Below, one piece after another: positions 26,704 to 27,333 of a DNA stretch of 64,000 nucleotides. Position numbers and translations under genes: made by a program. A model generated the notes under the pieces. It was given only the letters and a program-made list of their open reading frames with translations, made no database searches and was not told the origin of the DNA. The DNA is from an uncultured Acidimicrobiia bacterium (lineage in GTDB: Bacteria > Actinomycetota > Acidimicrobiia > Spongiisociales > JAOTWH01), in the NCBI GenBank assembly GCA_964347285.1, contig CAYFYE010000002.1:11075-75074 (forward strand), in the 5' to 3' direction. The number at the start of each line of letters is the position of its first letter. The first letter of the stretch is position 1.

Positions 26704-26790
26704 TGGCGGGCGGTGGCGACATGGGCCATAAAGTGGTTGACATGGGTAACAAAATGGGGCAAAGTGGTTGATCAATGGAGGACGATGGAC
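26704..26790 (+). promoter_or_regulatory. candidate MraZ operator / dcw promoter region: nine phased (A/G)TGG(G) repeats at about 10-11 bp spacing
   Basis: TGG cores at 26704, 26714, 26722, 26734, 26743, 26755, 26765, 26776, 26786; includes repeated GTGGTTGA; immediately upstream of mraZ. Confidence 0.45.
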
Positions 26791-26801
26791 GGGGCTGAGC
26801 A

Positions 26802-27233: not shown

Positions 27234-27333
27234 GCGGCGATGCCTGGTCCATCGTCAGCCCCCCGGATGCCATATGGAAGGCCCCTTACTCCGCCCGCTT
27301 CCATGTTGGCGCCAGCGCTCCGGGGGGCTGACC

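Follow-up and report, generated by a model that had tools for sequence, protein, structure and literature searches.

MraZ is among the most widely conserved bacterial transcription factors, and experiments have defined its operator in only a few species (Escherichia coli, Mycoplasma, Bacillus subtilis, and Burkholderia cenocepacia), in all of them with three or four boxes. The 64,000-nucleotide stretch analyzed here (contig CAYFYE010000002.1, positions 11,075‒75,074, from an uncultured Acidimicrobiia bacterium; hereafter the window) carries nine (A/G)TGG repeats directly upstream of mraZ, at the head of the cluster of genes for division and the cell wall (dcw). Is this array the operator of MraZ, and how many of its nine repeats would take part? 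We consider that the repeats are very probably MraZ sites, predicted from their motif, spacing, and conservation, for shutting off the operon that mraZ itself heads. That the array is an autoregulatory operator at the dcw promoter, with promoter occlusion as proposed below, appears likely, and we hold this with good confidence. The element type is well known. The instance is new, and the literature searched contained nothing on MraZ operators of Acidimicrobiia.

The array lies in the 176-bp intergenic stretch (...CCGATGGCGGGCGGTGGCGACATGGGCCATAAAGTGGTTGACATGGGTAACAAAATGGGGCAAAGTGGTTGATCAATGGAGGACGATGGACGGGGCTGAGCAGTG) between a divergent open reading frame (ORF; 25837‒26625, minus strand) and the GTG start codon of mraZ (26802). 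Its TGG cores start at 26704, 26714, 26722, 26734, 26743, 26755, 26765, 26776, and 26786, all on the mraZ strand and each preceded by A or G, exactly where a sequence-only reading of this DNA had placed them when it proposed a candidate MraZ operator. The distances between successive cores are 10, 8, 12, 9, 12, 10, 11, and 10 bp, so the spacing of 8‒12 bp given in that reading is borne out. Its description of the array as helically phased holds on average (mean 10.25 bp), with the reservation that the cores at 26722 and 26743 lie about 2 bp ahead of the register. The last four cores (26755-65-76-86) are spaced by 10, 11, and 10 bp, and the remaining gaps, including those of 8, 12, 9, and 12 bp, are less even. 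The array is strongly strand-asymmetric, since CCA occurs only once in the 176-bp region.

Within the array, the runs ATGGGT and ATGGGG, listed in the same reading, are found at 26742‒26747 and 26754‒26759. The two copies of GTGGTTGA that it reported correspond to a genuine repeat, which is properly described as two exact copies of the 11-mer AAAGTGGTTGA at 26730‒26740 and 26761‒26771, 31 bp apart. The repeat search also returned a 19-nt double-box unit (GACATGGGCCATAAAGTGG/GACATGGGTAACAAAATGG) that occurs twice within 26718‒26757, 21 bp apart and with 79% identity, and this repeated unit explains the alternating gaps of 12 and 9 bp. As a separate observation, the second copy of the 11-mer repeat (26730‒26771) creates a -35-like TTGATC at 26768‒26773, without a matching -10. 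The intergenic region contains no inverted repeats, which makes a palindromic operator or a hairpin unlikely. Tandem Repeats Finder reported nothing on 26600‒26850 because the repeat units are too short and too divergent. At gathering thresholds, Rfam gave no RNA family in the whole window and thus no known leader element.

The density and regularity of the cores set the array apart from the rest of the window. Nine TGGs fall within 98 bp, against a window mean of about 2.4, and 0.3% of the 98-bp windows reach nine. A chain of nine consecutive TGGs at 8‒12 bp is unique in the 64-kb window, where the runner-up on either strand has four, and the longest chain in 200 simulated 64-kb sequences (first-order Markov, with the same dinucleotide transitions) has six. 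A chance origin is excluded by this uniqueness and by the simulation maximum of six. The result depends on the spacing rule: at 9‒12 bp the chain of the window shortens from nine to seven, and three RTG(G/T) cores at exactly 10 bp occur nowhere in the window, the array itself failing this strict rule. Apart from the array, the windows with nine or more TGGs lie in coding sequence; such TGG-dense stretches (2187‒2360, 53899‒54030, 55904‒56065, and 63853‒63985) encode hydrophobic Trp/Leu/Gly-rich (membrane) proteins, are irregularly spaced, and were set aside as unrelated to the array.

Conservation was assessed with the upstream regions of mraZ from 80 related loci, of which 52, together with the window, were anchored on a conserved TTGACA and 30 were dereplicated for a consensus. 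Among the mraZ loci of the genome collection, those of Acidimicrobiia metagenome-assembled genomes (MAGs) are closest, their proteins being up to 80% identical. Counted from the T of TTGACA, the upstream half of the consensus reads ggg(-34) ... ggg(-23) ... aaggGGg(-16 to -10) ... gG(-2,-1) TTGACA, and it continues as TTGACA aGTGG(+6 to +10) ... aAaTGGgg(+15 to +22) CAaAGTGG(+23 to +30) ggc..cgtGG.aGa(+31 to +44). Information content rises in the boxes and falls in the spacers. The anchored profile contains eight G-rich positions, with phased GG at -33, -22, -12, -2, +9, +19, +29, and +39, and the TGG frequencies of 81% at +8, 90% at +18, 100% at +28, and 83% at +38 show a clean 10-bp period.

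A box matrix of 10 positions was built solely from the four core boxes of 29 relatives. Its consensus, AAAGTGGGGC, matches the published AAAGTG(T/G), GTGG, and GTG(G/T) boxes with their 10-bp period, in agreement with the likeness to known MraZ repeats that had been noted from the sequence. The nine boxes of the window are listed below with their offsets from the T of TTGACA, their matrix scores, and the number of the 29 dereplicated relatives with TGG, or with (T/G)GG where given, within 1 bp of the offset. The backgrounds per 29 relatives are 1.4 for TGG and 2.9 for (T/G)GG, and the troughs between the boxes hold 0 to 1 TGG.

26703‒26706, plus strand: box 1, ATGG; offset -33; 0.7 bits (empirical p = 0.023), marginal; TGG in 6/29 and (T/G)GG in 14/29 relatives.
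26713‒26716, plus strand: box 2, GTGG; offset -23; 0.45 bits, weak by the matrix at a conserved position; TGG in 13/29 and (T/G)GG in 19/29 relatives.
26721‒26724, plus strand: box 3, ATGG(G); offset -15, about 2 bp ahead of the usual -13 of the clade; 4.2 bits (p = 0.005); TGG in 5/29 relatives.
26733‒26736, plus strand: box 4, AAAGTGG, within the 11-mer; offset -3, abutting the putative -35; 10.4 bits (p = 6e-5), strong; TGG in 10/29 relatives.
26742‒26745, plus strand: box 5, ATGG(G); offset +6, in the putative promoter spacer; 4.6 bits; TGG at +6 in 0/29 relatives.
26754‒26757, plus strand: box 6, AAAATGGGGC; offset +18, in the putative promoter spacer; 12.6 bits (p = 8e-6); TGG in 24/29 and (T/G)GG in 29/29 relatives.
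26764‒26767, plus strand: box 7, AAAGTGG; offset +28, overlapping the putative -10; 10.4 bits, strong; TGG in 29/29 relatives, invariant in the clade.
26775‒26778, plus strand: box 8, ATGG(AGGAC); offset +39, about 4 bp past the predicted transcription start; 6.1 bits (p = 0.0016); TGG in 24/29 relatives.
26785‒26788, plus strand: box 9, ATGG; offset +49, in the short leader; 0.9 bits, doubtful; TGG in 2/29 relatives, near background (L006 at +49 and L017 at +48).

By the matrix, the boxes divide into three strong, one moderate, two weak, and three marginal, the two weak ones being those about 2 bp out of register. Box 3 is the first half of a 21-bp double-box repeat (family D1), its -15 position is shared with the relatives L006 and L013, and the GG at -12/-11 is conserved in at least 80% of the clade. 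At box 5, the canonical register (+8) of the window holds a degenerate GGGT (26744‒26747) where relatives have GTGG or GTGT, and the nearest relatives, L001 and L002, carry AAGGGT at this site. Around box 8, TGGAGGAC or TGGGAGA is conserved in the relatives. The sequence-only reading had counted nine or more units, an array longer than the three to four repeats of E. coli or Mycoplasma. All nine cores are present, and six of them exceed the 99.5th percentile of the window with the relatives-only matrix, whereas three are marginal and two are off register. As a check, the same reading had named the conservation of the repeats upstream of mraZ in relatives; the core boxes are kept in 24‒29 of the 29 relatives and the upstream ones in 5‒13, against a background of 1.4, and the reading withstands this check.

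This gradient in box quality raises an alternative in which, as in other bacteria, binding of MraZ is confined to the well-formed boxes near the promoter (26733‒26778), three to five in number, and the outer TGGs at 26704, 26714, 26722, and 26786 have no function and stem from the G-rich composition, from local duplication, or from common ancestry. In support, the outer cores reach 0.45 to 4.2 bits where the strong boxes reach 10 to 12.6 bits, TGG at +49 is close to background in relatives, and the 19-nt unit duplicated 21 bp apart suggests local duplication. The phased TGG chain upstream of mraZ has a median of four across 82 loci, where the window, L006, and L042 lead with seven under the 9‒12 bp rule, and published operators comprise three to four boxes. 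On the other hand, (T/G)GG upstream of the -35 is itself phased in the clade, piling up at -3, -13, -24/-23, and -34/-33 with near-empty troughs between, and the TGG-to-TGG distances in this region peak at about 10, 21, 31, and 40 bp. TGG also outnumbers CCA out to about -60 in the relatives. L006, whose MraZ is 71% identical to that of the window, has a homologous array of nine TGGs (-30, -23, -15, -3, +8, +18, +28, +40, and +49). It keeps those at -23, the offset of box 2, and at -15 and -3, despite 8 of the 23 spacer positions between these cores differing from the window when the anchored rows are read directly. L042 carries seven well-formed TGG boxes from -24 to +38. With this phasing in mind, we regard an operator confined to the core boxes as rather unlikely.

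Specificity was evaluated over the whole window and in independent loci. On both strands of the whole window, no position scores higher by the matrix than box 6 (TGG at 26755). Adding up the best four phased boxes gives 30‒38 bits at the array, against 11.2 bits at the next best site on both strands of the 64 kb. No second MraZ-type site that would mark a regulon member was found in the 64 kb, the dcw cluster included. The top phased box score of the minus strand in the window is a weak 9.6 bits, at 27272‒27303 in the region of the mraZ-rsmH gap. In 29 loci outside the training set of the matrix, including Firmicutes, Spongiisociaceae, and E. coli K-12, the whole locus was scanned on either strand. 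In 28 of them, the region directly upstream of mraZ holds the best phased four-box site, in the orientation of mraZ. In the 29th locus, the best phased site lies at -302.

Two of the public records show peculiarities of their own. In L050, an Actinomycetota MAG, two copies of the GC-rich, hairpin-like CCCCGCCATCGGCGGGG sit about 130 bp upstream of mraZ (locus positions ~2870‒2990), between mraZ and the best box array at -302; small palindromic repeats look to have been inserted into this leader. L010 is labelled "uncultured Gammaproteobacteria bacterium", and its mraZ and promoter region are nearly identical to those of the Acidimicrobiia MAG L008, so the name of this public record probably reflects faulty binning or labelling.

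The breadth of the matrix also bears on whether the phased A- and G-tracts might serve a role other than MraZ binding, such as intrinsic curvature, UP-like enhancement, or binding of another regulator of actinobacterial dcw promoters (such as MtrA or WhiA). Upstream of the -35, no trinucleotides show a stronger 10‒11 bp periodicity than AAA and GGG, and phased A-tracts are well known to bend DNA. Moreover, MtrA binds the mraZ promoter in Dietzia (PMC9602371). Yet the array agrees in motif, period, strand, and position with the MraZ operators of distant phyla without MtrA and WhiA, the same matrix finds the mraZ sites of E. coli and Firmicutes, and no other site of the array type exists in the 64 kb. 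Bending and MraZ binding could also coexist. We consider a purely non-MraZ role very unlikely.

A G-quadruplex formed by the non-template G-runs and controlling mraZ transcription is a further alternative, as proposed for Staphylococcus aureus, where such a structure was reported in the G-rich region of PmraZ and G-quadruplex-forming motifs were claimed to be conserved in mraZ promoters (PMC11796246). The array resembles that promoter in being G-rich and repetitive, with GGG or GGGG at 26708, 26723, 26744, 26756, and 26791. It differs in failing the G-quadruplex criteria: its maximum G4Hunter score of 1.12 is below the usual threshold of 1.2, it has no motif of G-runs of three or more with loops of up to 12 nt, and its two G2-type matches belong to a class with 517 members in the window. 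A distance of about 10‒20 bp between the G-runs agrees with helical phasing and does not suit a compact G-quadruplex, and this explanation seems extremely improbable.

The TTGACA that anchors the alignment is the probable -35 hexamer of the dcw promoter, a point absent from the sequence-only reading. The two putative hexamers are as follows.

26737‒26742, plus strand: inferred -35 of the dcw (mraZ) promoter, TTGACA, assigned by conservation, with near-maximal information content in the anchored profile.
26760‒26765, plus strand: putative -10, CAAAGT, 17 bp after TTGACA; its final T doubles as the T of box 7.

In 52 of the 58 Acidimicrobiia/Actinomycetota loci examined, TTGACA or a close variant precedes NANNRTGG by 16‒18 bp, and the pattern conserved in the clade is TTGACA, 17 bp, and NANAGT. 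At the -10, relatives have CATAGT, TATAGT, GAGAGT, or TAGAGT, with A conserved at the second position and T at the sixth in at least 80%. From the position of the -10, transcription would start at about 26772. Relative to this putative promoter, box 4 abuts the -35, boxes 5 and 6 lie in the spacer, box 7 shares its T with the -10, and box 8 covers about +4. The 5' flank of box 7 is more conserved than the flanks of the other boxes, which fits a double constraint by box and -10. Since this putative promoter, conserved in the clade, is interleaved with the boxes, the predicted mechanism is probably direct competition with RNA polymerase, in which MraZ and the sigma factor would read the same bases.

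Four loci from Candidatus Spongiisociaceae and related MAGs (L039, L041, L043, and L052) are without the TTGACA anchor and carry four to five very regular AAAGTGG/AAATGG boxes with a 10-bp period, 55‒105 bp upstream of mraZ. The promoter layout relative to the boxes seems to differ among Acidimicrobiia lineages.

The array ends 13 bp short of the GTG codon of the gene whose product would bind it, and this gene heads a canonical dcw cluster:

26802‒27233, plus strand: mraZ, 143 aa, GTG start; presumed binding protein and first gene of the presumed regulated operon.
27334‒42012, plus strand: the dcw genes rsmH, ftsL, ftsI, murE, murF, mraY, murD, ftsW, murG, murC, murB, and others, the last being ftsZ, assigned by Pfam and NCBIfam matches.

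The identification of mraZ with its GTG start in the sequence-only reading is confirmed by matches to Pfam MraZ (6e-37) and the NCBIfam equivalog TIGR00242 (129 bits, cut-off 98). The product also matches MraZ chains in the PDB (E ~1e-16). Cryo-electron microscopy (cryo-EM) of Mycoplasma genitalium MraZ showed that Asp11, Lys13, Arg15, Asp82, and Arg86 contact the TG(T/G) bases, and mutation of Lys13, Arg15, or Arg86 abolishes binding (PMC12957436). The window MraZ aligns without gaps to this protein (PDB 9qlr, 9qlg, and 9sx6) over residues 1‒129 and keeps all five residues, and the oligomer-interface residues Phe36 and Phe52 of M. genitalium are replaced by Gln and Val. The dcw genes are presumably co-transcribed with mraZ, given an operon organization that is conserved according to the literature. 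Between the mraZ stop codon and the likely rsmH start (ATG 27334) is a 100-nt gap (27234‒27333), and the ORF list takes rsmH to an ATG at 27274.

The assignment as an MraZ operator is thus supported because mraZ is the cognate regulator, the box has the motif of known operators, the boxes are kept in relatives, and the same matrix locates its best site upstream of mraZ in 28 of 29 independent loci. The operator proposed from the sequence alone therefore stands in its cognate regulator, motif, conservation, and specificity; that all nine units are functional does not follow, three of the cores being marginal.

In the mechanism that we propose, each (A/G)TGG box would be read in the major groove by one MraZ subunit through Lys13, Arg15, and Arg86, and adjacent subunits of an opened MraZ oligomer would occupy successive boxes cooperatively, about 10 bp apart on one face of the helix. 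The conserved core, boxes 4 to 8 (26733‒26778), would flank the -35, occupy the 17-bp spacer, overlap the -10 by its last T, and cover the region of the start site, so that MraZ and sigma-A RNA polymerase would compete for the same base pairs. Rising MraZ would then repress the mraZ-rsmH-ftsL-ftsI-mur-ftsZ operon. Boxes 1 to 3 (26703‒26724) are probably lower-affinity auxiliary sites that would extend the protein array upstream, and box 9 is doubtful.

Fibre-like MraZ assemblies were seen by cryo-EM on concatenated four-box DNA (PMC12957436), and continuous occupancy of a long array is therefore physically plausible. We put forward, tentatively, the possibility that Acidimicrobiia dcw promoters have an extended operator of eight to nine phased boxes over about 85 bp (about -70 to +15), in which the promoter hexamers are embedded and along which MraZ would form one continuous filament or a fully opened ring. 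By analogy, such an operator would be the natural counterpart of the fibre-like assemblies, and it might permit a steeper, more switch-like autorepression than the four-subunit arc on Mycoplasma DNA. If the outer boxes are bound, the array would lend itself, as a natural template, to the question of how many subunits in the MraZ ring contact DNA, a point left open by the 2026 structures. If they are not, it would be an ordinary operator in a new lineage.

Several observations weigh against the operator as proposed. The cores at 26722 and 26743 are out of register, and known operators have a strict 10-bp period; the three marginal cores score like about 2% of random positions. At the upstream positions, most relatives have GGG and not TGG, and the T that is contacted in the solved complex is thereby lost. 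A scan of 26400‒27000 with sigma-70 and terminator consensus sequences returned no promoter and no terminator. This scanner misses CAAAGT because three of six positions match TATAAT under a four-of-six rule, and the promoter assignment therefore rests on conservation. GGCAAAGTGG is also conserved in E. coli, there downstream of the -10, so its conservation could reflect MraZ binding alone and not -10 function. Finally, Mycoplasma gallisepticum MraZ was reported as an activator when overexpressed, which makes the sign of regulation uncertain.

Regulation of the divergent gene was rejected as the main role of the array: the gene is adjacent to mraZ in only 8 of the 80 loci (at 52‒59% identity), while the array follows mraZ, to which it therefore belongs. 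The divergent ORF encodes 262 aa with an N-terminal GxGxxA motif and has no Pfam or NCBIfam match above threshold. Its earlier description as a Rossmann gene is plausible from this motif and from the weak, sub-threshold matches to ApbA_C (ketopantoate-reductase-like, E 0.008) and F420_oxidored (E 0.04), and it goes without a family match above threshold. Beyond it, a universal-stress-protein ORF (25278‒25982, minus strand), as listed, overlaps the divergent ORF by about 146 nt; its true start is probably further downstream, since the Usp domain begins at residue 59.

Through the window and its relatives, the box, period, and orientation of known MraZ operators now extend to Acidimicrobiia, a class represented here by MAGs alone. 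Two features appear to go beyond a routine operator, namely putative promoter hexamers interleaved with the boxes and an array reaching eight to nine phased positions, both conserved in the clade. Published operators have three boxes in most bacteria and four in some Mycoplasma, with the box AAAGTGT-N3 (PMC12957436), and the box has been written as AAAGTG(T/G), as GTG(G/T) with 6-nt spacers, and as GTGG[A/T]G. In B. subtilis, repression of the mra operon depends on direct repeats of the GTGG type in Pmra, and the triple repeat occurs only at mraZ in the genome, which parallels the uniqueness of the array in the 64-kb window. There are three GTGG[A/T]G repeats with 4-nt spacers in that promoter, and an upstream extension is not described (White et al., bioRxiv 10.1101/2022.02.09.479790). 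In PmraBc of B. cenocepacia, gel shift showed MraZ bound to four repeats of 7 nt separated by 3-nt spacers; these lie downstream of the -10 "as in E. coli", over the start site, and are not interleaved with the -35 and -10 (PMC7761207).

The four-box operator of M. genitalium (9qlr, 9qlg, and 9sx6; PMC12957436) has the same AAAGTG(T/G) box and a 10-bp period, and there one subunit per box binds cooperatively through Lys13, Arg15, and Arg86, residues kept in the window MraZ, in an autorepressive system. It differs in its number of boxes, four, and in that transcription starts within box 1 and the -10 precedes all boxes, whereas the window has six to nine boxes with a less regular spacing of 8 to 12 bp.

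For E. coli, the comparison draws on the sequence NC_000913.3 and on secondary citations (Eraso et al. 2014, via PMC5138195). The K-12 region upstream of mraZ reads TTGACA-N17-TAAACT-N7-GTGGGaaattGTGGGGCAAAGTGGG. As in the window, where the period is 10.25 bp on average and the promoter putative, GTGGG boxes on the same strand with a 10-bp period stand right upstream of the mraZ gene that heads the dcw cluster, TTGACA is followed by a 17-bp spacer, and the matrix built from Acidimicrobiia picks the E. coli site. The 13-mer TGGGGCAAAGTGG, which comprises two boxes and their spacer, is identical between the window (26755‒26767) and the K-12 mraZ repeats (L081, 302‒314). In E. coli, there are three boxes, and all of them, this 13-mer included, lie downstream of the -10-like TAAACT. 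In the window, by contrast, the CAAAGT of TGGGGCAAAGTGG is apparently the -10 itself, and the boxes straddle the putative -35, fill the spacer, share a base of the -10, and are preceded by three to four further phased positions upstream.

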